Shown piece after piece: positions 1 to 59,488 of a DNA stretch of 59,488 bases; position 1 is the first letter of the stretch, and the number at the start of each line of letters is the position of its first letter. Source of the DNA: a virus (lineage: Duplodnaviria; Caudoviricetes); IMG/VR virus record IMGVR_UViG_3300027849_000014, positions 1 to 59,488 of that record; one strand, written 5' to 3'. Both the position numbers and the translations under genes were made by a program. The notes beneath the pieces were generated by a model that saw nothing but the letters and a program-made list of their open reading frames with translations, did not search any database and was not told where the DNA came from.

Positions 1-467
1 CATTAAACTCTATAGGGAATGTTGGTATATTCTCTTGGTTAATATAAAATAATCCTAAATTTGGTCTTGCTATATCAGTTGAATCATCAACCATAGCTCC
101 AAAGTTTAGAGGATTATTTGTATATCCTCCAAATCCATTAAAGTCTACAGCCTCAACATTGGAACGATTACTTGTAAAAAATATATTACCTGCTCCAACC
201 TCAATAGAACCTATAGCAACAACATGAGCTGTAGCTTCAGGAGTTAAGGATGCAATACATTTTAAATTGTAATAATCATATTCTATACCGCCTACATTAA
301 TCGTAGTAGCTAATTTACTTATTCCTGCAAATTGCCCTTCAGCACCTTTTTCCAGAACAGTAGCTCCTGTAACTCCACTCATTATTTCTTCGTATGTATA
401 TATCTGCCTTTGACTATTTGTTACTTGTGAGCCTCTTTCAGTTAAGTCTACTGACGGATTAAATCCT
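1..467. repeat. Terminal overlap, left copy (matches 59022-59488)
   Basis: Ungapped alignment by eye: 12 substitutions within 1-340; 341-467 (127 bp) identical. Confidence 0.95.
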
Positions 468-2341: not shown

Positions 2342-2500
2342 TTATATGCATAGCTCTGGTTTCATTCTGCTGTCGCCAATTACTAATTCTTGTTCACAGA
2401 AATCATCAGCCTCAGTAATTATAAAGCATATATCTGGAATATTCTCATTACGTTTATCCTGAAATGGTATACCATTTCCGTTTCCTATACCTGTTCCCAT
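2342..2500 (-). CDS. Small hypothetical protein (52 aa, GxGxG N-terminus)
   Basis: Hand-translated MGTGIGNGNGIPFQDKRNENIPDICFIITEADDFCEQELVIGDSRMKPELCI; TAATG overlap with the upstream gene. Confidence 0.65.
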   Translation of the reverse strand: MGTGIGNGNGIPFQDKRNENIPDICFIITEADDFCEQELVIGDSRMKPELCI

Positions 2501-5573: not shown

Positions 5574-5597
5574 AATTTAAGTGTATTTAATTTAATG

Positions 5598-5628
5598 CAA
5601 ATATAGTAAATAATTTTATCACACACAA
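5598..5628 (-). promoter_or_regulatory. groEL promoter TTG-N20-TATATTTG
   Basis: -7 box at 5598-5605 and TTG at 5626-5628 on the - strand. Confidence 0.7.
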
Positions 5629-5632
5629 TGTT

Positions 5633-5801
5633 GAGACTAGGTCTCCCTATATATATATATATAATTATATGTTTATTGCGTTAAAAATTTTTGACGTTTT
5701 GGTTTTCTTTTATAACATTCTTAACATTAGTACTGATAATCAAATAGTTAACTAAATAAACTCAACACAAACTCAACACAAACATAACATCGCCTTGACA
5801 C
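5633..5801. repeat. Origin-like module A: hairpin, (TA)n tract, palindrome and 11-bp iterons
   Basis: GAGAC-TAG-GTCTC 5633-45; TA tract 5648-70; CTGATAATCAA 5733-43; AAACTCAACAC x2 (5758-79) plus two degenerate units in the same 11-bp phase to 5801. Confidence 0.6.
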
Positions 5802-5809
5802 TATGGCAC

Positions 5810-5833
5810 AAAAAAAAGAGGGCACAACCCCTC
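5810..5833 (-). terminator. Intrinsic terminator
   Basis: GAGGG-GTTGTG-CCCTC followed by T8 on the - strand. Confidence 0.8.
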
Positions 5834-5879
5834 CTTCTTCTTAGGCTATGCCTAATCATCAAACACTACGCAATCATAG

Positions 5880-6056
5880 TTACTTAAATCTCTTCATTCT
5901 AGCGCTGGCCATTTCGTTACCCTCCGCTATCATGCTAACTTTATCCGCACGCTTTACTTCCTGTCGCAGTCTTGCAGCTTTACTTATTCCGCTTTCTAAT
6001 TCAGGAGCATTGTTTATTAATCTCCCGTTTGCAATTGTATAGTCACTGTACATCAT
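5880..6056 (-). CDS. Hypothetical protein (58 aa)
   Basis: Hand-translated MMYSDYTIANGRLINNAPELESGISKAARLRQEVKRADKVSMIAEGNEMASARMKRFK; variant promoter TATCTTTA at 6071-78 upstream and terminator downstream. Confidence 0.75.
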   Translation of the reverse strand: MMYSDYTIANGRLINNAPELESGISKAARLRQEVKRADKVSMIAEGNEMASARMKRFK

Positions 6057-6428
6057 ATCTGTTTTTTTTGTAAAGATACAAATTTTTTTAGATAGGCATA
6101 ACCAAAGGGTTCTATAGCACTCTACGTCAGCGAGGCCACAGCGGAAAGTGATTTTTTAAAAGCACCCCCCCTGATGATTTCAGGATTTTATCTCTGGTTT
6201 TTTTAGCTTTTTATCTGGAGCCCCTCCCCCATGGCTGCGCTCTAGCGCTGCACGTAAAGAACCCAGCCCGTACAAGCGCGCGCCTCCCTACGTTACACGT
6301 AATCCCTACCCCATACCCCCACATATCCCGTATCCTACCCAACAAAGACTCTCAGGTGCATAGAGATGCGCCTTAACCTCTGCGCTATCTGGTGGAGCTT
6401 AAACAAAGCATAGGGAACAATATGCCCG

Positions 6429-6690
6429 TAAGCCTCTGACTCTAAGCAATTTAACTGCGAAAGCACGCACTCTGACACAATTGTTATTTAGAATGAATAT
6501 AAACAACAAAAATAAGTATCTGAACCTCAGCTAGTTATAAGTTATTTTGCCTTAGGGCTTGTGTAGTACCCTTAAATAGACTATTTTTGAACCAGAGATA
6601 AACGCTCCTTGACATTTTGAGATATAACGCACTGATAATCAGACAGTTAGCTACTTTAAGCTACCTATCTCGCTGATAATCAGGTACTTA
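6429..6690. promoter_or_regulatory. Cluster of four 25-bp palindromic sites TAA-N4-CTGATAATCAG-N4-TTA (consensus)
   Basis: Copies at 6429-53, 6513-37, 6625-49 and 6666-90; further copies at 5726-50 and 15787-811. Confidence 0.75.
6592..6599 (+). promoter_or_regulatory. Probable early promoter -7 box TATTTTTG
   Basis: TAnnTTTG match upstream of the + strand early arm; no well-spaced -33 TTG seen. Confidence 0.55.
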
Positions 6691-6699
6691 TAGCGACCA

Positions 6700-6860
6700 G
6701 CACATGTGAACTCAAGTGCGCCCTATCCATCTAAGCAAAGCCTATCAACGAATAGGATGCCAAGCTAGAGAGCTGTAACAGGCTTTAGGAATAGGGTGAC
6801 GTGGGGTGCAGTGTGCGAGCATGGTGATGCCAGCCCGATAACCAAGGGGGGTATCACCGC
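6700..6860 (+). ncRNA. Unclassified structured leader RNA
   Basis: Nested helices 6700-05/6811-16, 6719-26/6791-98, 6737-43/6780-86 and 6763-66/6771-74, then 6823-31/6850-58; G-U pairs favour the + strand; GC-rich, no ORF. Confidence 0.6.
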
Positions 6861-6867
6861 AAAATAA

Positions 6868-6911
6868 CCAGCATCTGGATGACAGGCTAGTGAGAGCGAC
6901 ACTCATGCTGG
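6868..6911 (+). ncRNA. Mini-tRNA-like three-way junction 1
   Basis: CCAGCA [TCTG gatga CAGG] ctag [TGAG agcgaca CTCA] TGCTGG, then GGACTAAC. Confidence 0.65.
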
Positions 6912-6936
6912 GGACTAACTTTTAAATTAAATAACG

Positions 6937-7314
6937 ATGCAATTAACTACAAAACAAATGGAATGTAAAGATGAGTTTAGAATACTAGCTACAATGCTTA
7001 ATGACGCTGAGGTGAAGATAGATAAGCTTACCGAGGTTGGGACGTACATGGTGAAAGTAAGCACTAAGCATTTCGCCATGACGCTCAGGAAGAACGTAGC
7101 TGTATGCCCCCTGAACGTACTACAGCAAGGTGTTCGTACATGGAGCATGAGGCTAACAAACTCAAACGGCAGACAGGTAATGTACGCCTCAAGTATGCAC
7201 CCATCTGTATCCAGCCACATGGGAGACCTAATCTCAAAGCATGAGGATGCTAATGAGGTTGATTACAGGGCAGATGATTGGTCAGAGCTGGAGGCTTACG
7301 CTGGGCTTAAGTAG
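6937..7314 (+). CDS. Early hypothetical protein
   Basis: ORF track; first gene of the + arm with an A-rich start context. Confidence 0.75.
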   Translation: MQLTTKQMECKDEFRILATMLNDAEVKIDKLTEVGTYMVKVSTKHFAMTLRKNVAVCPLNVLQQGVRTWSMRLTNSNGRQVMYASSMHPSVSSHMGDLISKHEDANEVDYRADDWSELEAYAGLK

Positions 7315-7323
7315 ATTACCACC

Positions 7324-7366
7324 ACAGGGATTGGAACGATAGGGGTGTTCGACTCACCCCCCCTGT
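7324..7366 (+). ncRNA. Mini-tRNA-like three-way junction 2 (canonical T-loop)
   Basis: ACAGGG [ATTG gaa CGAT] a [GGGGTG ttcgact CACCCC] CCCTGT, then ACTAAC; 12-bp stacked acceptor plus T helix as in tRNA, with no anticodon arm. Confidence 0.75.
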
Positions 7367-7391
7367 ACTAACTTAATTAAATTCAATACCT

Positions 7392-7481
7392 ATGGCTTAC
7401 TTTCCTTTACTTATCCTAGCTCTTGTGATAATCACAGCAGCTTTACTTTTTAAAAACCAAATCAAAAATTTCTTAAAATAA
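7392..7481 (+). CDS. Small single-pass membrane peptide (29 aa)
   Basis: Hand-translated MAYFPLLILALVIITAALLFKNQIKNFLK. Confidence 0.6.
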   Translation: MAYFPLLILALVIITAALLFKNQIKNFLK

Positions 7482-7487
7482 ATCACT

Positions 7488-7565
7488 ATGAAAAAAACGC
7501 TAAAAAAACTCAACACAATCCTAATCGAATTTGCTAACGGTGCTGCATTTGCACTAAGAAATTAA
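7488..7565 (+). CDS. Micro-ORF (25 aa)
   Basis: MKKTLKKLNTILIEFANGAAFALRN; start context taaatcactATG shared with the next ORF. Confidence 0.55.
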   Translation: MKKTLKKLNTILIEFANGAAFALRN

Positions 7566-7570
7566 TCACT

Positions 7571-7723
7571 ATGACAAACCTAGAAAAACTAGCTCAGTAC
7601 TACTACAACGAAGACAATTTATCAACCATCAAATTTGACAAGCACGGCAGACCGTACATCCAGAACAACGGACGTATCATGCTCTCCAGAAGAACAGAGT
7701 ACAGCTACAGCTTTGCTCACTAA
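7571..7723 (+). CDS. Small hypothetical protein (50 aa)
   Basis: MTNLEKLAQYYYNEDNLSTIKFDKHGRPYIQNNGRIMLSRRTEYSYSFAH; packed between neighbours. Confidence 0.65.
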   Translation: MTNLEKLAQYYYNEDNLSTIKFDKHGRPYIQNNGRIMLSRRTEYSYSFAH

Positions 7724-7728
7724 AATCA

Positions 7729-7781
7729 GGTTAACTGATGATTGCTAATTGCATGAAAGCCCCGTACAGGGGCTATTAACC
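7729..7781 (+). ncRNA. Type I hammerhead ribozyme HH1 (predicted cleavage after A7775)
   Basis: GGTTAA-CTGATGA-t TGC taatt GCA t-GAAA-GCCCC gtaca GGGGC-TA-TTAACC: complete CUGANGA/GAAA/UH core with stems I-III; intergenic. Confidence 0.87.
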
Positions 7782-7798
7782 AAATAACAACTAGAATT

Positions 7799-8038
7799 AT
7801 GAGTATCAAATCAAACATTTTAACTGAAATCTCTAAGACATTTCAAACAATCGGCTGGGACACAGCAGAGGCAAAGGGAAAGCTTACCAACGACACGGGC
7901 ATGATACCAGCAGCATTTGAGAAGGAGATGACCATAGAGTACATGAAGGCTAACAACGTACTGTACACGCTTGAGTCTATTGAAAACGATGTAAAAAAGA
8001 TAAAAATGCTAATAGAATTACTAAACGATAACAACTAG
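7799..8038 (+). CDS. Early hypothetical protein
   Basis: ORF track. Confidence 0.7.
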   Translation: MSIKSNILTEISKTFQTIGWDTAEAKGKLTNDTGMIPAAFEKEMTIEYMKANNVLYTLESIENDVKKIKMLIELLNDNN

Positions 8039-8042
8039 AGCT

Positions 8043-8255
8043 ATGAAAAGTTTAAACAACATCAAAGAGACGTTTGCTAAAGGAAATCAAAACGGTAAGC
8101 TAGAGCTAGGTCGCGTTACTTATTGGTTTAACCTTAATGAATTGAGAATTAATCAAGACCTTGATGGGTTTGCATCTAATAGAGCACCGCTATACTATGA
8201 TAATGAGGCTAAATTCTATGCGGCTGTAAAGAGAGTATTAAACAAACAAAACTAA
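8043..8255 (+). CDS. Early hypothetical protein
   Basis: ORF track. Confidence 0.7.
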   Translation: MKSLNNIKETFAKGNQNGKLELGRVTYWFNLNELRINQDLDGFASNRAPLYYDNEAKFYAAVKRVLNKQN

Positions 8256-8258
8256 ACT

Positions 8259-8498
8259 ATGACAATGTACAAAGTAGTAACAATAGACCAATTTGGTCTT
8301 AACGTAACACAGGAAGATGGGTTTAAAAACTCATCAGATGCACAGGAAGAGGCTAATGATTGCATCGAAAGATGGGGAGAACAATTTGGTCAGGATTTTT
8401 GGGTAGAGCCTTACGAACCAGAGCCATACAAGAAGCCAAGGGGATACAACAATAACGCAGTCGATGGCTGGGAAGACATTTATCAATTAGAAGAGTAA
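8259..8498 (+). CDS. Early acidic hypothetical protein
   Basis: ORF track; very D/E-rich. Confidence 0.7.
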   Translation: MTMYKVVTIDQFGLNVTQEDGFKNSSDAQEEANDCIERWGEQFGQDFWVEPYEPEPYKKPRGYNNNAVDGWEDIYQLEE

Positions 8499-8499
8499 C

Positions 8500-8583
8500 A
8501 CTACTCACCACTCTAGTGCAGTCAAAATAATGGTGTCCAACCTGACACTCAATCACTTGAGGTACGAAGGAAGTAAGAGTAGT
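8500..8583 (+). ncRNA. Unclassified multi-stem RNA element
   Basis: Closing helix ACTACTC(8500-06)/GAGTAGT(8577-83) encloses CTCAA-tcac-TTGAG and either GTGTC/GACAC or GTCA/TGAC helices; intergenic. Confidence 0.45.
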
Positions 8584-8587
8584 AATC

Positions 8588-8632
8588 ACAGGCGCTGTTG
8601 ACAGCCTTGAGCAGAGCAATACTGCTGCCTGT
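8588..8632 (+). ncRNA. Mini-tRNA-like three-way junction 3
   Basis: ACAGGC [GCTG ttga CAGC] cttg [AGCAG agcaata CTGCT] GCCTGT, then ATCTAAC; all helices Watson-Crick. Confidence 0.7.
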
Positions 8633-8653
8633 ATCTAACCAACACGATTAATT

Positions 8654-8893
8654 ATGAAATTAAAATTTAAAGTATGTGACCTAACGGGAGCAGTAGAGTC
8701 ATCTGGAATTATTGGAGATAACAACTACAATGTAGCACTACATGATGCCTCATTTTTTGGCAGCAACACTTTCATTGATAGGGGGTATAAGTATACTGTT
8801 TTCCAAAATGGATTTAAAACCAAGGAGAGTACTAAGTATCACGACCTAAGTGAATTAATGAACAAAGATATATCATTTTATATAAAATTTTAA
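8654..8893 (+). CDS. Early hypothetical protein
   Basis: ORF track. Confidence 0.7.
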   Translation: MKLKFKVCDLTGAVESSGIIGDNNYNVALHDASFFGSNTFIDRGYKYTVFQNGFKTKESTKYHDLSELMNKDISFYIKF

Positions 8894-8895
8894 CT

Positions 8896-9033
8896 ATGAA
8901 AGCACAAAACAACAGCGATGCTTACCTGAAGCTGCTACTAGACGAAGGTAGGATATCATTTAAAAATTATTTTTTTAGACAGGGCGCAGAGAAGCTGGGC
9001 ATTAAAACTTATGAATTAATTAACAACAGATAA
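8896..9033 (+). CDS. Small hypothetical protein (45 aa)
   Basis: Hand-translated MKAQNNSDAYLKLLLDEGRISFKNYFFRQGAEKLGIKTYELINNR; fills the gap. Confidence 0.65.
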   Translation: MKAQNNSDAYLKLLLDEGRISFKNYFFRQGAEKLGIKTYELINNR

Positions 9034-9037
9034 AACT

Positions 9038-9355
9038 ATGAAAACTAAAATCAAATTGAAAGAAGGATACGGACAGGGCTTTATGCCACTAGGCGCATCA
9101 TACAAAAACTACACAATGCTGGTAGCAATCGCTAACTACTCTGAAAACGGGGTGTGTTACAATGACGCAATGGAGATGCTGGACGAAGACACCAGCATAG
9201 AAAAGTACCACTCCAAAATTAGGCTTCTGGAGGGGCTAGGAGGCTTCATGAGGGCTGTATGCACAGAAGACTTTGCCTTGGCATGGAACAGGGCAGATGG
9301 CAGCAACAGAGACGCTCTTCTGGAGGCTTTAAAAAATAATGAGATAGAGCTATAA
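9038..9355 (+). CDS. Early hypothetical protein
   Basis: ORF track; C-terminal GGFMRAV...AWNRAD..N motif. Confidence 0.75.
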   Translation: MKTKIKLKEGYGQGFMPLGASYKNYTMLVAIANYSENGVCYNDAMEMLDEDTSIEKYHSKIRLLEGLGGFMRAVCTEDFALAWNRADGSNRDALLEALKNNEIEL

Positions 9356-9356
9356 A

Positions 9357-9409
9357 GGTTAACTGATGATTGCTAATTGCATGAAAGCCTCCTCTGGAGG
9401 CTATTAATC
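9357..9409 (+). ncRNA. Type I hammerhead ribozyme HH2 (predicted cleavage after A9403)
   Basis: GGTTAA-CTGATGA-t TGC taatt GCA t-GAAA-GCCTCC tct GGAGGC-TA-TTAATC; compensatory C-G to T-A change in stem III and G-C to G-U in stem I relative to HH1. Confidence 0.87.
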
Positions 9410-9421
9410 AAATCAAATACT

Positions 9422-9904
9422 ATGAAGACTACAATCAAATTATCAAACAAGATGGAAAGATACCAAGCAAGAAATGGGTATCACGTACAGGTTAATCTAA
9501 ACTACACCGCTACGGTCAGAAACCTTAGGGAGTTTGTTGAGTACATCAACAGCCCAGAGTCAGACCTTGACCTAGAGTTTTTTGGGAACATACTAAGCTA
9601 CGACAGTACAGTAGATGATGAGTTTAAGCACGGGCTTAACACAATCATAGCTGAGGTGAAGGGCTTTGCAGTGTTTAACGCACAGTTTAAGCACACTTAC
9701 ATCGAGTGTAAGGAAGAGAAGGAGACCATCAGCATAAAGACCAGCAACGGTAAGCTAATCACCTTCAGCGTGATGTACAATCAGTGCGTAGATGTAAAGT
9801 ACCACAACGGTCAGGATGATTTCAAAATAATTGGGTTTCATGGGGGGCAGACTCCTGTGCCACACACAGCCGTAACACTACAAACAATCTTATTAAACAA
9901 CTAG
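9422..9904 (+). CDS. Early hypothetical protein (start revised from 9377 to ATG 9422)
   Basis: The track start (TTG 9377) lies inside HH2; ATG 9422 has the usual aatactATG context. Confidence 0.7.
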   Translation: MKTTIKLSNKMERYQARNGYHVQVNLNYTATVRNLREFVEYINSPESDLDLEFFGNILSYDSTVDDEFKHGLNTIIAEVKGFAVFNAQFKHTYIECKEEKETISIKTSNGKLITFSVMYNQCVDVKYHNGQDDFKIIGFHGGQTPVPHTAVTLQTILLNN

Positions 9905-9908
9905 AATT

Positions 9909-10427
9909 ATGGAAAGAACTTTAAAATTTAAGACAGACAAAGCAACAGATTGGTACATCACCAAAGAGTTTGCAGACGACAAACACATGCGTAATTTTAT
10001 TGCGTATGTGTGCAGAACAAAGAAGGGATACACCCTTGACGAAGTATTTATTAATCAAACAGAGTATAAAACTTGTGACAGGTGTTGTTATGATATCGTA
10101 GATAATGACGGCGATATTATGGAACACGTTTGCACTGATGAAATTGAATTAAATTCAAGAGAGGACAACAAACTAATTGCAGAATTTATGGGTATGAAAT
10201 ATTCAGATGAAAAAAGTTTCAATAATGGAGAATGGACACATTCAATTAAATCATTGAGTAAATTTGAAACCTCTTGGGATTGGCTGATGCCTGTATGTCA
10301 ACAAATTGACAAATACCTAGAGGATAATATATCGCTGATAGGATACTTTGATGATTGCTTAAGGTCTAATGATATAGACGTAAGGTATCAAGCTGTAGTA
10401 GAATTTATTAATCAATTAGACAACTAA
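9909..10427 (+). CDS. Composite hypothetical protein with CxxC...HxC motif and C-terminal SWDWLMPV domain
   Basis: ORF track; C-terminal half is paralogous to the next gene. Confidence 0.75.
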   Translation: MERTLKFKTDKATDWYITKEFADDKHMRNFIAYVCRTKKGYTLDEVFINQTEYKTCDRCCYDIVDNDGDIMEHVCTDEIELNSREDNKLIAEFMGMKYSDEKSFNNGEWTHSIKSLSKFETSWDWLMPVCQQIDKYLEDNISLIGYFDDCLRSNDIDVRYQAVVEFINQLDN

Positions 10428-10431
10428 AATT

Positions 10432-10731
10432 ATGAAAGACAATAAACTAATAGCAGAATTTATGGGGCTATCAATCAAAGAGGGGGTATGTTACTATACT
10501 GACGCAGATGATATGTTCCCTATGGGTGTCGAGGTTGAAGAACCGCACCTACCCTACGACACCTCTTGGGATTGGCTTATGCCTGTGGTTGAGAAAATAT
10601 CAGATGCAAAATCATGGAGCATAAACGCAACATTAGAATGGTTAAGTGAAAGCCAAGATAGGGATGGTTTTTATGATAGGGATGGCATCTTCCAATCAGT
10701 AGTAGAATTTATTAATCAATTAAACAGATAG
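10432..10731 (+). CDS. Hypothetical protein, SWDWLMPV domain
   Basis: Shares DNKLIAEFMG, TSWDWLMPV and VVEFINQL with the upstream gene. Confidence 0.78.
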   Translation: MKDNKLIAEFMGLSIKEGVCYYTDADDMFPMGVEVEEPHLPYDTSWDWLMPVVEKISDAKSWSINATLEWLSESQDRDGFYDRDGIFQSVVEFINQLNR

Positions 10732-10913: not shown

Positions 10914-11993
10914 ATGAGCATCAAACACATCACACCGCTAGATTACAGATACATGGAAAACATTAGCTGGGAGAAAAAAGTATCATACGCAGAGGTAACC
11001 TTTACTGTGAGTACAGGGGCTATTGAGCAAACCATTAAAGCCAATGTAGACACCAACGGGAAAGGGCTTTACGAGGCGCTAGTAGACCAAAGAATAATTG
11101 CTGAGTCAGACCATGTAAGAAAGGAGATTAACAGCATGGTTAAGCGCAATGTTGACAAGTACTGCGAAAGAAAGATAAGGGTATACAAAAGCGGAGTAAG
11201 GATACACAACGAGCTTGTAGACCTTGTAGTAAAGGATAAAAGAACAACTGTCTGGGAGCCTGAGAAAAACAACGGGGCTGTGAAGCCTGAAGAGTTGGTT
11301 GTAAGAGACCGCGTAAGTAACCTAAGCAATGAGGAGTTTTCTGGTAGATTATCTGATGACTCTTACCCCGTATACATTACTGCTTGGGCACACCCATCAA
11401 TTACCAAAGAGCCCTGTAAGTGTTCAATAAATTTCTGGATGAAGGATAAAGACGATGTTACAGACATACCTTACAGCCTACCTGAGTTTACGTTAGGGCT
11501 CAGGTCTCTTGTCACGAATACTAATGACGGTGTGCTACGCAGAAAAGAACATATAATTGACCTTATATACTCTGATGACAGGGGTATGTACCACTCTTAC
11601 GTGATACAGGATACAGGCAGAAGGGTTAAGCTTAACACCTTCATAGCCATGGCTAGACAGTACAACAGAGAAAAGGAAGCCCTGATAAACAAGAGCTTGG
11701 TAGAGAATGTAAACTACAGAGAGGTGCTGGCTAAACTACAGGAGATGTACCCTGGGTTACCGATATCTAAGAAAGAGGTTTATCAGACCAGCTTTAACAG
11801 AGACTTCCATGGATACTGGGGCAGAAGAAGATACCTAAAGTGTATTGTTGTTGAGTTTCCTGACACGAGTCAGTTGTTTTACAACGAAGAGAAAGCATGC
11901 GAAGAGAAAGAGCTGGTAGTTTCAGGGATGCATGATGTTTCCCTTATGACACCTGAGCAAGCAGTAAAAAAATTAATTAATCAAAACAAATAG
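10914..11993 (+). CDS. Hypothetical protein (359 aa)
   Basis: Long ORF; no motif recognised. Confidence 0.8.
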   Translation: MSIKHITPLDYRYMENISWEKKVSYAEVTFTVSTGAIEQTIKANVDTNGKGLYEALVDQRIIAESDHVRKEINSMVKRNVDKYCERKIRVYKSGVRIHNELVDLVVKDKRTTVWEPEKNNGAVKPEELVVRDRVSNLSNEEFSGRLSDDSYPVYITAWAHPSITKEPCKCSINFWMKDKDDVTDIPYSLPEFTLGLRSLVTNTNDGVLRRKEHIIDLIYSDDRGMYHSYVIQDTGRRVKLNTFIAMARQYNREKEALINKSLVENVNYREVLAKLQEMYPGLPISKKEVYQTSFNRDFHGYWGRRRYLKCIVVEFPDTSQLFYNEEKACEEKELVVSGMHDVSLMTPEQAVKKLINQNK

Positions 11994-15749: not shown

Positions 15750-15843
15750 ATTCCCTATACGAGACCAGAAAGATAACATTATCGACACAGACACTGATAA
15801 TCAGTTACTTAAGCAACACAAACTCGACACAAACTCGACACAA
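15750..15843. repeat. Origin-like module B upstream of the primase-helicase
   Basis: ATAACATT (15773), CTGATAATCAG (15794-804), AAACTCGACAC x2 (15820-41); same spacing as module A. Confidence 0.65.
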
Positions 15844-15859
15844 TTAAATCAAACACAGC

Positions 15860-20622: not shown

Positions 20623-21134
20623 CAAGAGAAAATAGACTTAAGAAAATAGTAAACACAGTTTTTGACGTAGACGTTATGGAGAAAACCAGGAAGCGAGAAG
20701 TGGTAGAGGCCAGGATGGTGTACTGCCGCATACTTATGGACGAGGGATATAAAACCCTATCAAGAACAGCCAAGAGCCTGGACAAGCATCACGCCACAGT
20801 TATACATTATAATAATTCCTTTAAGTATGTTATAAAAGCAGACGATAAATTGTATGAATTGTATGAGCGATGTGTTAAAATGTTTACAGAACCACAGCGA
20901 GTAGAAAAAGAATTAACACTGGTTGAATGTAAAAATTTAATATTTACTTTGGAAAACAAAATAAAAAACTTAACTTTGAATTTATCTAGTCTAAATTTAG
21001 AGCATGAAATATTTATAAAAAGACAAAAGGTTTACCATGATATTTATAAAACGATACATGAGAGGGTAAACAAAAAGAACATCAAACAAGTTACACGCAA
21101 ACTTAACACATACCTAAATGGAATACACAGTTAA
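20610..21134 (+). CDS. Second DnaA domain IV-like HTH protein with coiled-coil tail
   Basis: TRKREVVEARMVY...LDKHHATVIH. Confidence 0.72.
   Translation: MANLTRENRLKKIVNTVFDVDVMEKTRKREVVEARMVYCRILMDEGYKTLSRTAKSLDKHHATVIHYNNSFKYVIKADDKLYELYERCVKMFTEPQRVEKELTLVECKNLIFTLENKIKNLTLNLSSLNLEHEIFIKRQKVYHDIYKTIHERVNKKNIKQVTRKLNTYLNGIHS
20948..20978 (+). promoter_or_regulatory. Possible internal promoter TTTG-N19-TAACTTTG
   Basis: Both boxes at canonical spacing, but inside a CDS. Confidence 0.45.
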
Positions 21135-22964: not shown

Positions 22965-25900
22965 TTAAAAGTCTTCATATATTTCTTTCTTCAAGTCTCT
23001 CTTCATCTTTCTAATATCTGACTTTACTTCTTCTACTTCTTCCATTGTTCCTCCAGGACCATACTTATCCTTATACATTTCAGGAAACATCGCCTTCAGT
23101 TTAGTCTTACTCATTGGTGTATATGTTTCTCCGCCTTCATTCTTTGGTCTGTAAGAAGGAGAGATACCCATCACGTCATACGTAGCGTCATCCATTTCTT
23201 CGTCTTCACCACCAAACAAATTGTACAACCCAATGAAAGGGTCAAGCTGTGCTCCTATAGTTATCTCTGTTATTACTCTAAGCGCGGCCTCTACTTCTCC
23301 GACATCCTTCTTGGTAAGCTTTCTGTACTTAGCTATTACACTAGCTATAGGGTTAACAACATCATCGCTAAACCTAAGCCCTTCCTGTTTATATTCTTCA
23401 CCTTTGATTCCAGCTATTGCTCTACCTGCTACATCAAACCCTTCAACAGCTGAGCCCACAAATGGTAATTGATATATAAGATTCAGTCCCATCATAGCCT
23501 CACCCATTTTTTTAAGAGCAGCCTCCTTGTCTTCGTCATCTCCTTTAACAAACTTAGCAATGTTAGATGCCCCTACAAATAACACGTTGGCTACCATCAT
23601 GTTTAATGCTAAAGCTCTTGTGTCTTTTGAGCGCGGCATTTTACCTTTTGATATACTCCTTGTTATATTGGTTGTGCTAGACATAACCTTATTAATCTGA
23701 AGGAATAATGTACTACCGAACATAGTGAACGCCCTTTGAAATGCGTTGCCATTCATCTGTAAAGGAATCTTATCTGTCCCCCGTCTTGATTGTTGAGTAG
23801 GGTTATAGTTATTAAAAGCCGCAAGAGCTTCAGCCTTAGACATACCATTTTTTATGTTACGCTTATAGTTAATCATGTATCCCATAACCCCAAGCACATC
23901 ACCAATAACAGTAGGTGCAGCAGCAGCTGTTTTAAACTTAGCCTGTATCTTCTTGCGTTGACTTCCCGTCAGCTCCTTCTTCTTAAAGGTTTGAGCCCCA
24001 GACTCTAGCCCGTACACATCACCTTCAAGCCCTTGCTCTATTCTCTTTCTAAATGTAGGAGATATCTCCATGGCTAGTCTTATAGCTCCTTTCTTTCCAA
24101 CCAAGTCTTTACCTAAAGACAGTACGTTAACCGCACCATCAATCATAAACATTGGATAGTCAACAGCCTTCCTAATTACACGAGGAACCTTAGACCCTTC
24201 AGGAAAATAACTATAGTCTTCAAATGCATTTACAAAAGACGTGGCCTGCTTGATTATTTGTACCGCTTTAAAAGCTAGGGCAAATCCTGTAAACTTAGAC
24301 TGCAGCTTGGATATAAATTTTACAGTTCCTGACGCATCTTTACCAGCGTCTGGATTGATAGCAAAGTTTACAGCTCTCTTGACTGCCGAGTCAACCCCAG
24401 TCGAATTGAGTAAAGCTTGAACAGATTTAATCTTAAATAAATTGTTTAACCTCTGTGTTCCTACAGCATACGCCTTGTATTTTTCCATGGTCTCAACATG
24501 GTTGTTAAGAACAGACGTAAACGAACCTGCGTGCAGCTTAACATCGGAGGTTGTGTCTACCCTCTCCTTAAAAGCAGGAGCAGCCTCAGCATTAAAGACT
24601 CCGTTAAAGTCTCCGCCATCTAGTAGCTTCCCCATCTTTTCGCTGTTAACACTAAGTGTAGATGTTGGAAAGTAGTTGTTGACATACCCTAGGTTTACGT
24701 CATTAACATAGGAGTAAACCTCGTTTACACTTTCGTAGTACTCGTTACTTAGAAAGTCTACAGACTTCTCTGTAAACTCTACAGCCTCTATACCTATAAT
24801 GCCTTTGATATTCTCTATAACCTCAGGGGTTATACCTTGAGCCTCAAGCTTCGCTCTCTGTATATCATTTAAACTCAACGCATATATACGCATTAGTTCG
24901 TCTGCACTAAAGATGTCTGTATATTCATTTCCAGTATCACTACGTTTTAATTTTAATTTATGAACGCCAGTGTTTAGTTTAGAATAAATTTCTCTTACCC
25001 CTTTAGTAATTCCAGGGATTGTGTTAGCAATGTTATCAAGCTTCTCTCTTGTTTGGAAAACACCTCCGTTGTTTATGTCATCCATTCGGTTCAAGGCAGC
25101 GTATACATTCTTCGTAAAGAAATCTTTTCCTCTGGTTACCCTATCAAGAGTATTGCTTAAGGTACCAAGGTGCTGTAGCATCAACTTAAAGTTTTTAATA
25201 TACTCACTAGCCGTAGTAAACTTCATGCTTTCAGCTAAGGTAGAAAGCCCTTTGCCTATTTCAAAGTTTCTAAAGTGAGAAAGTATTTCATTCTTTCTAG
25301 CGTCACGCTCATTCTCATTTAGAACATTGCCATCTTTATCAAACAGAATAGGATTGGTATCTTTAATCTGATTGTCTGCCTCCTCTTCCATTTTTCTATT
25401 AGCCTCAGCCCTTGCTAGTCTTCTGGACTTAAACACAGCAATGGACTCAGCTCTAACATCTTTAACCTGTTGCATAAGCTCTTGAACTTCTTCAAGATTC
25501 ATATTAGAAACATCTCCAAAGGTATCAAACGCTAGTGCTAAGTTTAATAGAGCCTGCTCTTTCTGTGTAAGAGTCTCTCCTTTAATCCCACGTTTCTTGC
25601 GCTGCATTTCACGCCTCTGCTTATCTATAATGAGGCTTATTTCTAAAGCTTCTGTCTGAAGCTTCTGTTGTATATCAAGCAGCGTATCAGCATCAGCCAT
25701 AAGCACCTGCTTAACAGCACTGAAATAGCTCTGTCCTTCCTTACTTAATCCTTTAGCCCTACGCTTACCTGACTTCGTAAACGCGGTCATGGCTTTTGAC
25801 TTAACAAGCTTGAGCAAATCCTTAACTAAAGCCTTCTTCATTTTCTGCTGCTGCTTCTCTACAATATTCATAACATACTCGGTGTCTGCCTGGAATGTAT

Positions 25901-28900
25901 CAACTGTAGATTTACCAACCCTAGATATGAGGTTGTTAATTTGAGCCTGAGTATATGTTTTAGATTTAGGTAGTGACTTTCTTATGAAGTTTTTAAGCTG
26001 AGTCTGTGAAGCCTTAAGGTTCTTCTCATTTATCTTACGCTGCCTTAGGTTGTTTTTAATGGCTGCTATTTCTTTTTGTACCGTAACATTAGAGCGACTG
26101 TTTAAAGTCTTGTCAAAGTCTACCAATAGCTCCATCTGAGTTTGTTCTGGTTGCGCCTGGTATATAGGATTAGCTTTCATCAGGTCCATAGCTTTCTGTC
26201 TAACCTCTGCCATCGTCTTACCTTTGGATGCAAAGTTAGACAAGGCTTCTCTAACCTCAGAGAATAACTTGATACCATCCTGTACTCCGCTTTCAACTCT
26301 ACCAAACGCATCTGGTAACTGAGTAAATGCATCTACCTTTACCTCCATAGCAGCAGCTATATCTGCTGCTGGAAACTTTCTTCCCTTAAGTACCGCTTTA
26401 ATAGATGCGTCTGAGAATCCGTTTCTTCTACCAGTTTCTATTATAGAATTCATACTCTGGTCAGACTTAAGCATGGCTTCCTTTAGCTCTGTCGAGAAAG
26501 TTTTTAACTGAGCATCGGTTAGTTTCACAGGTTTACCGCTAAAGATATCTGCCATTGCAGTACCTAGGAACTCATCCATTGTTAGGTCCTGAATCTCCTG
26601 TGTTGTTAGGTCCTTAGACAGTTTAAATTCTTGTCTTACATAATCCCACACCGCAGTAATCCAATCCTTAACCTGCTGCTTTAAACTTGCATCCACTACG
26701 CTCTCACCTCTGTTACCGATGAGTGTTGCCATTGCTTCTTCAGTAGCCTTGTTTACATCACCATCAAAACGCTTGAGTAATTTCTTATACAGCTCAGTCT
26801 GTTGTACAATCTCTGCACCACGCTTATATATCTTCTTACCTTTAGGTGTTAATGACAGATGCTTTACCCACACATGACCCATCTCATGAATAGCTGTGTT
26901 GTAAAGCTCAGACTTTGAATCGTGAACATCTTTATTAATAAAGATGTTACCATCCTTAGTCATACCATACACAACAGTATCTCCTCTTAGGTATGCTGTT
27001 ACGTCAGGGCTCTCTAACAATTGGTTCATAGTAGCCTGGTCGGTAGATATATTAACAAAAGGAAAGCTTCGATTCATAAAATCTAAAAGCCTACCCTCTT
27101 CAGTCACACCAACAATAGTTCCTTGGAACTCTCTGTTAGTCATACCCATTTGAACAGGGATTACCTCTGATAATCTTTTCTTATCTGACCTTTTTCTATT
27201 TTTCCCTGCATTTTCATTAGCCTTACCAAGCACAGCATTATTATATGCAGACGGAAACAATTCAAGAACAGACTGAGGCTGTTCTATAACACCTATTATT
27301 TTTCCTCTGGGACCAACAGGATAGTTAGGGTGATTAGTTTTTTCAATACCAGGATTAAGAACATCAATACCTGTGATTGTAAAGACTGAGCGCACAGGAG
27401 TATTTTTAAGCTGAGGCTCTGTAAGAACATCCGTAATAGAACCAAGGTGTAGCTTAGCTTTGCTTTCTGCTGAAGGGTTTTCACCAAGCAGTGCTTTAGC
27501 AACAGGGTTCGATGGGGTCCCAGGTTTTACCGCCTTACCAGTAGGACTGTTAGGCTTACCATACCCTAGATTACCTGTGATTACATTGACTGATGTAATA
27601 GCCTTTAAATTCTTTAAAGCTTTAGGTGTTAGTAATCCGTCTATTGTTTTTGCCTTAACACTTTTGTCCATTTTTTGAACATCCTCAATAGATTTTATTT
27701 GCTCAGCGTACTGCTTAAGTGTACTAGGTTTTACCGCATTACCAGATAAACCCACTCCATCTTTTATAGCTTGCTGTAGCTTAGTTTTTTTTGTTTCTAA
27801 TCTCTCTCTAAAAACATTCAAAGCCTCTACTCTCTGAGCCTTAGGGAACGAGGATATGTTGTCAGCCATTACACGAACAACAGCTTCATTGCTAAGTATA
27901 GAGTCTGTCTCCATCTTAACAATTGACATAGGAACTAATCCGTTATACTCAGGATTAGCTGCCCACCAATTTTTAAAAAGTTCTTTGTTGTTGTTATATA
28001 TCTTGGTCGCTGTAGAAATCTGACCCTTGACAGTGTTGTTATCGATGCTTGCCCATGCAAGATTCTCATGCCCCTTCACACCGTTAAATCCTAGGCCACC
28101 CTTTAAATTTTTTATAACCTTGCCTGTAGATGGGTTGACTACGTTACCAGTTCTAAGCTGGTCTGATATACTGAACATGGTAGGGATACCATCAATGACA
28201 TCTATTGTAACAATAGGTAAAGGTCTTCCTCCGTTCTCCTTTAGTCTTTCGTTTAGTTCTTGTACATCAATCTTAGGGGCATTAGGGTTTGTCTCGGTTA
28301 TCTCGACAACCGCACCATCCGTATCTTCGGACATTGCCTCAACAATTTCATTCACATCTGTGAATCCTTCTTTACTCTGCTCCTCCTTTAACTTGAAGTC
28401 AACATTGGCATCGTTCTCAAACTCTGATTCTAAGTCTGCCTCTAGGTCTGCAACCTCTTGAGCTGCAGCTGTCTCACTTGCTTTGAGTTCTTCAAACCCT
28501 GAATAGTATTCTTCGGTAGTAACACCCTCAAACTTAGAGTCGTTCTCTATTGCTTTGAGGAGCGTGCTATAAAGGTCTCCCCCAGTTTGTCTGTCTTGGG
28601 ACCGTTTGCTCGCAGACTTTCTAAGAATTTCTTTCCTTTTTCCCTGGTCGACATAGATGGAGTTGACTGGTCGGTAGCTTTGTTTATCATAAGTAATGTT
28701 GTTAGCTTCTAATTCTTCTACAAAGATACCAATTTTATCTTGTAGTTCTGGGTTATCAAATTCAAATATGTTTATGAAACTTACCTCCCCTGTATCTTCA
28801 TTGACACTGAAGTCTGTTATACCTGACTTCTCTAGAGCATTGATAACACCCTGACTATCTGATACGGTAAGAACATACTCATTCCCGTTGTGCTCCTTAG

Positions 28901-31900
28901 AGCCCTCCTCTACGTACTCTGCGGCTATGCTACTCTCCTGAGTTTCAGGAGCTAACGCAGCTGAGATTGCAGCGTACTCTTGAGCCTGCTCTATTGACGC
29001 GTCCTTAAGTACTACCCTTGTTGATATCTCAACTATCTCTTTGCCAGCATCGTTCTTATATCCACCGATACCTTCTTCAATCTCAACCTCAACACCAAGC
29101 TGTTCGCCAATGGCTGTTAAGTTTTCTTTGTACGCCTGGTACTCTTTAGTTTTTCTTAAGGCAACAGCGTCCTCAACTGTTTTAATTGTTGTATCAAAGA
29201 ACGGAGCCACAGCAACTATGGTTTCTGCCTTTGTCTTTGTATCTGTTGTTGTCTTTGTGCTTGCCTTTGATTTAACCATGACAGGTAAATCAATATCAAT
29301 ACTATAGGTATTAGGTTTTCTTGGCACTTTCTTTTCTCCAGGTCTAGGTGGTGGAGAAGGAGGTGATTTCTTTTTCTTTATTGTTGCGGTTATACCTGGG
29401 TAGGCAGCCTCAATCTTAGCCAGCTCGGCCTCAGCCTCAACAAGCTCTGTGGTTGAATAATTATTGTAAGCCGTTTCGGAATTTTCAGCTACAGATTCTT
29501 TTGTTGCATTGTTGTACGCTGTTTTTCTGGTGACAACATTACCATCTGAATCAACTTTAGTATCCATGTTAGATTTGTTGAAGGACCTTAGTCCTCCTGT
29601 AGATATTGAACTGGTCTCAACAACCTCTGCTCCATCTGGTAATGTAGCCTCAGCAGACGTAATCATATTCTTGAACGCGCCTCCTGTAGACTCCATCTTA
29701 GCGGAGAACATATTTGTTGCCTTGCCATCTTCATATACCCTAACGTATCCAACAAAATTATTTTTGTCTGTGCTACTAATTATAGCATCAACAACTCCTG
29801 TGTCTTGATTCACGTATGTGGCTGTCGCAACTCCTTGTTCATCAGCATCTGTGATTTCTTTTATGGCTGCCTTACCAGGAAGTCTTTTGTCTGTGTGTGC
29901 ATCTCCAAAAGTATCTCTTTGCTCTGGAGATATAGCAGCTTCATCAGGGTTTTTAAATACTAACTGTTTCGTTTCGGTGGTCTCAACCCCTGGGGTTTCT
30001 TCGATGGATACTCCTTCTCCCACTCCTGTGCTATCTTCGGTTTGTTCGCGTGCATCCACGCCCTCTGTTTCTGTGATTTGAACGGCATCTAGTTTTTCAT
30101 TTAATATTTTAGTAACTTCTTTATCATTGGCAACCTTACCATTAAACTGGGTAAGCTGACGAGCATTCATTCTACCAAGCTTCTTTAAAAACTCAGTTCT
30201 GCTATAAGTTTTTCCATCTATTACATACTGAGACAGAGCCTCTCTTGTGTCAGTGGTCTCAACCCCTGGAGAAAAGACAGCCTCTATCCTTGCTTTAATC
30301 TCTGCAGGAGCTAATTTTTTGTTCTCTATTAAAAATGCAATCTCTGCATTAATATCTTTTATCTTCTGACCGAATATTTCTTTACGATTGGTGTCTGCAG
30401 AGTACTCCTCTTTAGCGGACAGCAACTGCATAAGCCTTGTCTTCACAAGTTTATTTTTTTCGTTGCTCTTCCCCATACCAAAGTCAAGCATGTTGTCTGC
30501 GTCCTTAGAAAGCCCTAAGTTTTTTTGTATTCGCTGTGCCTGGTCGGCATTAATTTGTCCAAGCTCAAGCATGTTGTTTGTCCACGCAGATACTCTTGTG
30601 TCGCTTTCTTGTGACAATTCCTGAACTATAAAATCCATCTCGGTAAGCTTAGAGGCAAGCTCTATCTTACTCAATCTTTTTATGTCCATCACCTTGTTGA
30701 TTATCATGCTTGATGTGTTGTTTCCAAAACCACCAATACCTTCTGCAGCTATTTCTTTAAAATCTAATTCATCACCAACATTAACTTGAGCAAGTCCCTC
30801 TCCAAGCATTTCTGTAGCAGGGTCAACTATCAATCGCTCTGCTACCTGTGATACAACCTTCTTTGTTCTTGAAGCTGTTTTACCAACTTTAAACACGCGC
30901 CCTGCAGCGCCTGCGGTTATGAAGTCTACAAGAGCAATTGGAACACCACGCTTTATACCTCTTTCTTTTGCTGTTGCCCAAATCTCTGGGTCGTTTATAG
31001 CCTTCACAACATCCTGTGGGTTTAGAACATCTAGGCCTTTATCCTCCATAGCTGCAAAAAACTCATTGGTATACTCCATAGCAAAAGATGTCATCGCCAT
31101 ACCTGTCTTCATACCCTGTCTCGCGCCAAATACAGCTCCTGCTCCTGTAGTTACTACACCACCAGGTCCTGTAACAATCCCTGCCGACCCAATTAAAGCC
31201 CCAGTCCCAGCACCTGTAACCGTACTAGCCGCCACAAGTTCTGCTCCGTAAGGAAGCATCATACCTATAGAGTTTATAGCCATAACAAAAGCTGTTTCAA
31301 ATGGATTAGCGTTAAACGCATCAAGAGATTCTCTAAATCCTGTAGCCCTGTTCCACCTTGATAACTGTCTAGACTGTTTTCTGCCTTGATTTTTTCCTTT
31401 TAATGCAGATATCATTTCAGCCGCCTTCTTAACATCCTCTTCGTTGTTAATGTCTAGATTTTGAAAATCAAAAGGCATACCTGTGCTTAGCTGAAGTATA
31501 ACTTCAGATGCGTTTCCATCGTTTAGCCCAGCGCGGAGCTCTCCGTAAACCGCAGACGCGCCATCTTCCATATCCTGGGTTATTGATTTGTCATACTTAG
31601 CGCTGTAAAAAGTTTTAGAGGTTTCATATAAATCAGCAGCGTGCTGTCTCTCTACGTTTATTGATTTGGCCTGTATCCTAAGGTCGTCTATTAGCTCTGC
31701 CTGTGTTTCATTTGTGGGTACGACATTGTATAGGTCTTTGACAGGTACACCAAATTCTTTTAAAGACAAAACCTCTAGCTCGTCCTGAGCAAACAGTAGC
31801 TGTCTATTTTCTTTGGCTGCTTTCTGGGATAATGCTTCGTATTTTTTGTGTGTCTTAAGGTCAAACTCTTCTCTGAGCTTAATTTTTTCTTCGGTATTAA

Positions 31901-58914: not shown

Positions 58915-59488
58915 TTAAGCTATTGTAAATTCTACAGTTGTATTTTTTTGAGCAATAAAATCCATATCAACATAAACATCACATTCAAAATTTGCAGCAT
59001 CTGCTGCTACGATGAACATTGCATTAAACTCTATTGGGAATGTTGGGATATTTTCTTGGTTAATATAAAACAATCCTAAATTTGGTCTTGCTATATCAGT
59101 TGAATCATCAACCATAGCTCCAAAGTTTAGGGGATTATTTGTATATCCTCCAAATCCATTGAAGTCTACAGCCTCAATATTGGAACGATTACTTGTAAAA
59201 AATATATTACCTGCTCCAACCTCAATAGAGCCTATAGCAACAACATGAGTTGTGGCTTCAGGAGTTAAGGATGCAATACATTTTAAATTGTAAGAATCAT
59301 ATTCTATACCGCCTACATTAATCGTAGTAGCTAATTTACTTATTCCTGCAAATTGCCCTTGAGCACCTTTTTCCAGAACAGTAGCTCCTGTAACTCCACT
59401 CATTATTTCTTCGTATGTATATATCTGCCTTTGACTATTTGTTACTTGTGAGCCTCTTTCAGTTAAGTCTACTGACGGATTAAATCCT
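58915..59488 (-). CDS. Hypothetical (probably virion) protein; true start at 496 across the junction
   Basis: The frame stays open to the window end and continues through the overlap. Confidence 0.78.
   Translation of the reverse strand, partial: GFNPSVDLTERGSQVTNSQRQIYTYEEIMSGVTGATVLEKGAQGQFAGISKLATTINVGGIEYDSYNLKCIASLTPEATTHVVAIGSIEVGAGNIFFTSNRSNIEAVDFNGFGGYTNNPLNFGAMVDDSTDIARPNLGLFYINQENIPTFPIEFNAMFIVAADAANFECDVYVDMDFIAQKNTTVEFTIA
59022..59488. repeat. Terminal overlap, right copy
   Basis: Matches 1-467 with 12 substitutions. Confidence 0.95.

Follow-up and report, generated by a model that had tools for sequence, protein, structure and literature searches.

Our analysis identifies two type-I hammerhead ribozyme motifs, here named HH1 and HH2, in IMG/VR virus record IMGVR_UViG_3300027849_000014. 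The entire record of 59,488 nt constitutes the window of this study. Judged by sequence and comparison, both motifs are genuine type-I hammerheads and real members of a covarying family, and self-cleavage is predicted for them. They lie in intergenic gaps of an early + strand operon, where they probably process the polycistronic mRNA and provide insulation at the RNA level. The case is built on the motif itself, its family membership, the covariation of its helices, a fixed distance between cut and start codon, and mosaic boundaries that fall at hammerheads. A first-pass annotation of this DNA had proposed that two tandem hammerheads bound 1628 nt (7776-9403) with six named open reading frames (ORFs) and release them as an RNA able to circularize; the coordinates and the ORFs can be read directly in the sequence. 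The elements in question are the following.

7729..7781, + strand: HH1, type-I hammerhead ribozyme (helix I open), predicted cut A7775/U7776; evidence from sequence, descriptor, covariance model and family covariation.
9357..9409, + strand: HH2, type-I hammerhead ribozyme, predicted cut A9403/U9404; evidence from sequence, descriptor, covariance model and family covariation.
7776..9403, + strand: interval between the predicted cuts, 1628 nt; coordinates from sequence.

In HH1 the 5' strand of helix I (7729-7734) is followed by CUGAUGA (7735-7741), helix II (7742-7754), GAA (7755-7757), helix III (7758-7774), A17 at 7775 and, last, the helix I 3' strand (7776-7781). The order of parts is identical in HH2, where A17 is at 9403, and each element is 53 nt long. 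The core is complete in both copies (C3 U4 G5 A6 N7 G8 A9, G12 A13 A14, A15.1-U16.1 and H17, which is A), and the geometry is the usual one for type I, with 6 bp in helix I and 4 positions plus a 5-nt loop in helix II. In helix III, which is a GC-rich hairpin, A15.1 opens the stem and U16.1 closes it. Comparison of HH1 with HH2 reveals the same helix II, a helix III with fully compensated differences (5 bp and a 5-nt loop versus 6 bp and a 3-nt loop), and a single C/U difference in helix I, which includes one G.U in HH2.

A chance origin of both motifs is unlikely. With a loose descriptor, two sites were found in the window, and 200 dinucleotide-preserving shuffles gave a mean of 0.08 sites, one site in 16/200 and two sites in 0/200. 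A 24-mer shared by the two copies occurs twice in the window versus 0 expected; an exact search of IMG/VR for this 24-mer yielded no match. The covariance model (R1) scores HH1 at 73.2 bits and HH2 at 69.3 bits, both copies being part of its training set, and the hammerhead fold of HH2 is identical to its minimum free energy (MFE) fold (-14.9 kcal/mol). Further candidate sites were rejected: a candidate third copy near 11011, from repeat family D13, has no core and amounts to a 21-mer shared by chance within a coding region, and the CTGATGA...GAAA strings at 16458 and 35788 lack flanking helices and are not among the two descriptor sites.

The strongest support comes from related genomes. Relatives were searched via the 805-aa primase, and the best 80 of 154 IMG/VR loci were examined; a 359-aa neighbor gene used as an alternative probe led to one locus only, which ends short of the hammerhead region. 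Descriptor and covariance model agree on 18 further copies in 8 of the 80 loci (L006, L007, L008, L009, L012, L046, L048 and L075), a lower bound, many related loci ending short upstream. All of these copies share the strand of the primase and lie 4-9.5 kb upstream of it, and the relatives that carry them have 1-4 canonical copies in this same early region (up to 4 in whole records). In an alignment of 20 distinct sequences, 98.6% of cells are paired and 12 of 15 pairs have changes on both sides; none of 500 shuffles reaches the observed value, and slid registers pair at 29-41%. By these measures the covariation is strong in all three helices. Weak model matches at L075 587-647 (20.6 bits) and L012 2331-2392 (20.0 bits) were left out of the hammerhead counts, and two descriptor matches in L017 together with long-helix-II matches in L121, L130, L160 and L169 look spurious and were left out of the family. 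One type-I family hammerhead each is also present in the cultured Flavobacterium phages (Elemovirus) MT497118.1 and MT497078.1; these copies are located at L088 1501-1574 (- strand, 44.3 bits) and L089 1501-1574 (- strand, 35.4 bits), the latter with mismatches in helix II.

The same comparison bears on the idea that the repeats are transcription signals, i.e. a phage promoter or a terminator hairpin, whose likeness to hammerheads arose by chance. Helix III is indeed a GC-rich hairpin within an intergenic gap, the genome holds other repeated promoter-like elements, and the Rfam hammerhead models gave no match in the window or in the 111-nt slice 7700-7810, whether at the gathering threshold or at E <= 10. 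The Rfam miss weighs little because canonical relatives also lack a gathering-level match: the type-I model gave none on L007, L142 and L165, which hold 4, 6 and 3 canonical phage type-I hammerheads, respectively. An abundant phage type-I subgroup appears to be missed by standard annotation. Chance likeness, however, does not fit the shuffle counts given above, and conservation across 20 distinct relatives extends to helices I and II and to all 13 nt of the core. Moreover, no T-run follows the hairpin, no + strand terminator-like site was found at either element, and the other repeat families of the window are unrelated in sequence. The transcription-signal scenario is therefore scarcely credible.

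The two window copies are distinguished by the opening pair of helix II (10.1/11.1), which is U.U in both of them versus G-C in the other 18 of the 20 aligned sequences; the closing pair G10.1-C11.1 by which type I is recognized is absent from HH1 and HH2. The available text of Perreault 2011 (PMC3088659) describes U10.1-U11.1 as a natural variant that replaces the otherwise most conserved G-C pair and as the most active of the mismatches. A pattern scan of IMG/VR for the U.U form returned 38 loci, 19 of which hold 21 complete hammerheads confirmed by the descriptor. Because the variant is published as natural and active and recurs 21 times in IMG/VR, U.U does not exclude membership among the hammerheads. 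Position 17 is A in all 21 of these hammerheads and in both window copies; in the G-C copies of the same loci it is C nine times and A eight times. Within the U.U set the pairs 10.3/11.3 and 10.4/11.4 covary, U10.2-A11.2 was fixed by the search pattern, so that the A17 link alone counts as observed. No mention of a U.U/A17 link was found in the available text of Perreault 2011. Given the 21 further copies, the covariation of inner helix II and the constant A17, the comparison argues that the U.U form of the window is no product of decay but belongs to a selected subclass that recurs.

The location of the elements relative to genes is equally regular. The upstream ORF ends 5 nt before HH1 and 1 nt before HH2, and in relatives the upstream stop codon often lies inside the 5' strand of helix I or the first letters of the core. 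From the cut to the next ATG there are 23 nt (HH1) and 18 nt (HH2) in the window. For 201 distinct hammerheads from all fetched loci, the median distance from cut to ORF start is 22 nt (interquartile range 21-26), with 89% of the distances within 15-35 nt versus 12% for random positions. A cut about 22 nt before the start codon points to mRNA processing. L001, L002 (window copies), L003 and L048 (identical to L046) were dropped before the cut-to-start and neighbor-pair counts, and L005 (same contig as L003) was dropped from the neighbor-pair count only. The sequence behind the HH2 cut exemplifies the arrangement:

9404..9424, + strand: leader of the next cistron (ORF 9422-9904), which starts at the HH2 cut with the TTAAYCAA motif and has its ATG 18 nt on; from sequence.

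The 3' strand of helix I is at the same time the beginning of the leader motif TTAAYCAA, which is common to many early genes. This leader also precedes genes without a hammerhead (ATGs at 10432, 10736, 11997 and 20610), and in other phages the same is true of genes between arrays. As far as sequence can tell, the ribozyme is a module of ~47 nt placed directly before a standard translation leader, and the leader provides the 3' strand of helix I.

Arrays of such modules are widespread. A scan of IMG/VR for the canonical form gave at least 120 matching stretches, and among the 80 loci examined, 34 carry at least two same-strand copies; neighbors are spaced 179-1730 nt apart in 53 of 55 intervals. 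Same-strand copies that lie within a few kb of one another and flank short blocks of non-conserved genes, the hallmark of clustered phage hammerheads, are thus found in the window, in its relatives and in these 34 loci. L218 (2292-8601, + strand) holds 11 same-strand hammerheads in 6.3 kb, in which helix I is mostly one sequence with four variants compensated in cis. In L165 (- strand, ~1918-2330) and L092 (- strand, ~8481-8720) the hammerheads are ~180 nt apart with one micro-ORF per unit; one of these micro-ORFs encodes a conserved hydrophobic peptide of 34 aa that occurs in two different contigs.

Hammerhead cleavage produces a 5'-OH and a 2',3'-cyclic phosphate. According to the processing model, each ribozyme, located a few nt 3' of the upstream stop codon, would cut itself co-transcriptionally ~22 nt before the next ATG and divide the early polycistronic RNA into sub-operon mRNAs. 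Each downstream mRNA would have the first base of the standard A-rich leader (TTAAYCAA...) as its 5'-OH end, and each upstream mRNA would end in the folded ribozyme with its 2',3'-cyclic phosphate. Every cassette would get the same 5' end regardless of the upstream sequence, i.e. an insulator where cassettes constantly swap, and the stability, decay and translation of neighboring cassettes would be uncoupled. A ribosome that terminates on the upstream gene would mask both helix I and the core, and cleavage may therefore be coupled to upstream translation. In vivo cleavage and its effect on stability and translation are what we infer from these sequence data.

Several points weigh against this explanation. 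The hammerhead fold of HH1 (-18.3 kcal/mol) competes with an MFE fold of -20.0 kcal/mol that is 1.7 kcal/mol more stable and sequesters part of the core. The U.U variant without G10.1 may cleave slowly, and Rfam, as stated, does not recognize the elements. The alignment used for covariation was fitted to a model trained on both window copies, and the patterns used to choose the IMG/VR samples prescribe parts of helices I and II. A promoter inside 7776-9403 may exist. The benefit of cleavage (insulation, stability) is deduced, and reviews, as far as their available text goes, call the role of phage hammerheads open.

As both motifs belong to a covarying hammerhead family, it is reasonable to expect that 7776-9403 would be excised from a transcript reading through both, and no + strand terminator-like sites were found inside the interval. 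The released RNA would be a six-cistron mRNA that starts with a 5'-OH and ends in HH2 with a 2',3'-cyclic phosphate. Its six ORFs cover 1389 of 1628 nt (85%), and no PHROG or Pfam family was found for any of them. The interval comprises the following features.

7799..8038, + strand: ORF, 79 aa; no PHROG/Pfam match, no tblastn match in related loci.
8043..8255, + strand: ORF, 70 aa; no PHROG/Pfam match, no tblastn match in related loci.
8259..8498, + strand: ORF, 79 aa; no PHROG/Pfam match, no tblastn match in related loci.
8499..8653, + strand: non-coding gap of 155 nt ("mini-tRNA3" region) with a Y-shaped 3' domain of modest stability, from folding.
8654..8893, + strand: ORF, 79 aa; no PHROG/Pfam match, no tblastn match in related loci.
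8896..9033, + strand: ORF, 45 aa; weak relatives in 2 related loci.
9038..9355, + strand: ORF, 105 aa, stop codon 1 nt ahead of HH2; relatives in 2 related loci.

The first-pass annotation had placed a "mini-tRNA3" in the gap and suggested that it could relinearize a circular form of the interval. Neither idea finds support. ARAGORN found 0 tRNAs in the window, Rfam at E <= 10 returned no tRNA or tmRNA on 8480-8670 (nothing except one chance snoRNA match), and blastn of 8499-8653 gave no match in related loci. The stretch 8496-8656 folds into two domains, with a stability that exceeds that of shuffles modestly (z = -1.81) and is reached by 7 of 200 shuffles. RNase P-type relinearization has no basis. 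A search for tRNAs between closely spaced hammerheads elsewhere was likewise unproductive: 9 of 10 loci checked have none, and the three tRNAs of L159 lie outside the hammerhead spacing.

The hammerheads also coincide with repeated DNA, which raises the question whether the elements work mainly at the DNA level, as short conserved islands that serve the annealing protein of the phage as recombination sites for cassette shuffling, with RNA cleavage secondary or lost in the U.U copies. An identical 34-bp repeat is present in the window.

7728..7761: 34-bp DNA repeat copy 1, identical to copy 2; from sequence, and unitig-like contigs of other runs break inside it.
9356..9389: 34-bp DNA repeat copy 2; from sequence and unitig-like contigs of other runs.

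Homology blocks of relatives often have their start or end at hammerheads, and among L006, L007, L008 and L009 they repeatedly start at hammerhead starts (e.g. 1368/978, 2348/820, 2895/1831 and 469/1831). Comparing gene content between hammerheads, a check named in the first-pass annotation, was carried out on the related loci: extra ORFs are found directly upstream of hammerheads in the L006-L009 comparisons, and 4 of the 6 ORFs enclosed in the window have no relative. Two contigs of relatives from other metagenomes, matched at 85% likeness, carry hammerheads at other positions. The contig from run X20 joins 7324 to 7727, carries the hammerhead followed by 40 other letters and continues at 7575, so that a different hairpin and then the 7571 gene come after the hammerhead; the contig from run X11 carries an additional hammerhead copy ahead of 7390. 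The phage also encodes a Sak single-strand annealing protein (SSAP) and a PDDEXK-like protein (nuclease). These boundaries are suggestive of cassette exchange. A pure DNA site, however, would not be expected to show compensatory changes in three helices and an invariant catalytic core, helix II of the U.U subclass covaries too, and BLAST blocks start at conserved islands partly for trivial reasons. In addition, exchange at the DNA level is compatible with mRNA processing and not exclusive of it. The earlier suggestion that the DNA repeats mediate cassette loss or exchange is therefore upheld in part, by the block boundaries, the displaced hammerheads and the Sak/PDDEXK pair, and loses the part of the block starts that is a BLAST artifact. 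Contigs of 4 runs showed no joint between the first and the second repeat, as a DNA form without the cassette would have, a contig-level result that is no evidence of absence. A mainly DNA-level function remains unlikely. In the X20 and X11 contigs aligned with 7727-7782, a GC-rich hairpin of ~15 nt appears directly 3' of the hammerhead in the related strains and is missing from the window; this extra hairpin may be a 5' stabilizer of the downstream mRNA.

The circular mRNA proposed at first pass can be evaluated with the same family. In this scenario the 1628-nt fragment docks with its 5'-OH end on the helix I strand of HH2, and reverse hammerhead ligation or host RtcB closes a translatable, exonuclease-resistant circle. 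The pairing on which the proposal was founded does exist: the fragment's 5' end pairs with the 5' strand of HH2 over 6/6 bp, and the hybrid folds as a hammerhead at its MFE (-17.5 kcal/mol versus -14.9 for HH2 in cis, i.e. 2.6 better). Identical helix I 3' strands in 46 of 80 neighbor pairs make the same docking possible there. Ends with 5'-OH and 2',3'-cyclic phosphate suit RtcB as well as hammerhead ligation, and RtcB is found in Bacteroidota (Bacteroides thetaiotaomicron is among the matching control genomes). For animals, the available text of Cervera and de la Pena 2020 (PMC7229834) reports that type-I hammerhead repeats yield circRNAs.

The complementarity offered in favor of the circle is a by-product of the shared leader TTAAYCAA, and the cross-junction pairing is mostly lost where the helix I of neighbors differs. 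In the 34 neighbor pairs with different helix I 3' strands, cross-junction pairing is 6/6 in 5 pairs, 5 in 16, 4 in 9 and 3 in 4 (L012 keeps 3 and L046 keeps 4), and the same pairs have 6/6 helix I pairing in cis, partly by the construction of the descriptor. Cross-junction pairing is lost and cis pairing is kept, which argues, at the level of sequence, that self-cleavage is under selection, as opposed to a ribozyme that spans the junction. With coding sequence over 85% of its length and no rod-like self-complementarity, the fragment is quite different from the short, mostly non-coding, highly self-complementary unit of viroid-like RNAs, and the helix I duplex is weak (-4.1 kcal/mol). The phage genome encodes neither RtcB nor a PF09414 RNA ligase; a host enzyme could serve. 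Spliced or circular products of tandem phage hammerheads were sought and remained undetected according to the available text of Perreault 2011 (PMC3088659; data not shown there), and in the literature searched no report of such circles from DNA phages was found. Nor did a joint from 9403 back to 7776 appear among the contig joints listed, although contigs, also those of the presumed RNA run X20, do not reveal ends, strands or circles and cannot establish that such a joint is absent. The comparative data thus do not favor a circular mRNA, which we regard as improbable. Equally doubtful is a broader scenario, in which the hammerheads would delimit mobile RNA/DNA cassettes, the ~47-nt module would be functional at once before any gene with a TTAAYC leader, and a fraction of the excised units (multi-gene, or a single micro-ORF from ~180 nt up) would be ligated into circular, translatable mRNAs through reverse hammerhead ligation or host RtcB. 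If true, a DNA phage would for the first time be seen to produce circular mRNAs by means of ribozymes, and circles, if found, would be a notable result.

By its sequence the virus is a marine Flavobacteriia-type podophage of roughly 60 kb, and the record is estimated to be 99% complete. The portal protein is 46-50% identical to those of Flavobacterium (Elemovirus), Cellulophaga, Tenacibaculum and Maribacter phages and 76% identical to that of an uncultured 60.8-kb podovirus; blastn of 7000-10500 against GenBank phages gave no match. A-rich leaders without a Shine-Dalgarno sequence are a trait of Bacteroidota, and since the start codons of this phage are preceded by such leaders, a Bacteroidota host would suit it. 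From ~6.9 to 22.6 kb, the + strand carries a block of small ORFs and, after them, genes for replication and recombination, among whose products are the Sak SSAP, the PDDEXK-like protein and a primase/helicase. Behind the hammerheads, at 9909-10731, there are tandem paralogous genes for products of 172 and 99 aa, which correspond to repeat families D3, D4, D14 and D15. Related loci, L033 among them, have as many as 4 genes of this family, for which there is a weak PHROG match to a goF-like mRNA metabolism modulator (E = 0.0019).

Two repeat families often occur together just 5' of gene blocks, including that of the primase gene (5731-5798, 6630-6690, 7491-7524, 15792-15849 and 21084-21117). In one, the element is 20 nt long and includes a small palindrome around TGATAATCA; the other consists of tandem units of AAACTCRACACAA. 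The TGATAATCA/AAACTCRACACAA repeats may be phage promoters or regulatory sites, and as such could define the hammerhead-carrying transcript. Between a divergent GroEL-like gene and the early + strand genes, ~1.3 kb (5574-6936) lack a long ORF; GC-rich stretches at ~6160-6480 and ~6690-6920 stand out there from an otherwise AT-rich genome and may represent structured RNA or an origin/promoter region, and an Rfam scan of 5574-6936 gave no match. A 300-nt direct repeat (window 1-300 / 59022-59321) is 96% identical, possibly a terminal repeat or the trace of a permuted assembly. An ORF of 3448 aa at 22965-33311 (- strand) has no PHROG family at E <= 0.001; its size recalls the virion-packaged RNA polymerases of N4-like phages. 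A fluoride riboswitch model matches 2390-2488 (- strand) with 23.1 bits, below the gathering score of 34 (E = 0.041), probably by chance.

Among known systems, RiboJ, attributed to Lou et al. in 2012, is reportedly a self-cleaving ribozyme insulator that stands before the translation initiation region and makes expression independent of context. RiboJ was engineered from a satellite-RNA hammerhead, and a natural insulator role in a phage is our own suggestion here. Viroid-like and retrozyme units are highly self-complementary, and hammerheads with a weak helix III work as dimers. Retrozymes, viroid-like RNAs and animal satellites resemble the window in that two hammerheads of the same polarity bound a ligatable unit and junction-spanning hammerheads re-form, as described in the available text of PMC7229834 and PMC4209133. 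Those units are short and lack coding sequence. The 1628 nt between the cuts here are 85% coding, the hammerheads have a long and stable helix III, and neither a repeat unit nor a retroelement feature is present.

The closest precedents are the hammerhead clusters of prophages (Perreault 2011, PMC3088659). They flank genes or small groups of genes, their cleavage in vitro is documented, and the role proposed for them is the processing of long transcripts of the phage. Going by the available text of that paper, the clusters likewise comprise several same-direction hammerheads a few hundred to ~2000 nt apart, with circular or spliced products discussed; its examples are a triple in Agrobacterium tumefaciens and tandems in Clostridium scindens and Azorhizobium caulinodans. 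Here, in contrast, the carriers are marine Flavobacteriia-type podophages, all hammerheads are type I, helix I is conserved and the cut lies ~22 nt before the start. A 2017 review, in its available text, also notes phage hammerheads beside small non-conserved ORFs. The HHphage of haloviruses HF1/HF2 is similar in its location on an early polycistronic transcript just 5' of a start codon (13 nt there), and the mapped transcript 5' end lies <= 3 nt from the cut (PMC3088659, available text). It differs in being a single copy of another structural variant in an archaeal virus, as opposed to arrays and a distance of ~22 nt. The type-I hammerheads in the 5' UTRs (untranslated regions) of RNA viruses share the long helix III and the position upstream of ORFs, and were proposed to aid translation initiation; they belong to eukaryotic RNA viruses with the problem of cap-independent translation. 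Their authors, as far as the available text of the preprint shows, noted the resemblance to bacterial and phage DNA-encoded type-I hammerheads and discarded DNA-phage matches as already described (bioRxiv 10.1101/2024.05.16.594327).

The arrangement reported here has been described since 2011 and is no new kind of element; what is new is the phage group that carries it, and the variant in its core is known. Circular products of tandem phage hammerheads, too, were already raised in print in 2011 (PMC3088659, available text). What our data add is a large, alignable set of type-I hammerheads that sharpens the question of their role in phages, together with useful by-products, namely the fixed cut-to-start distance, the leader doubling as helix I, the U.U/A17 link, the mosaic boundaries and the cultured Elemovirus carriers. 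Because at least two cultured Flavobacterium phages carry a copy, processing, insulation and circularization of early phage transcripts are all testable at the bench.

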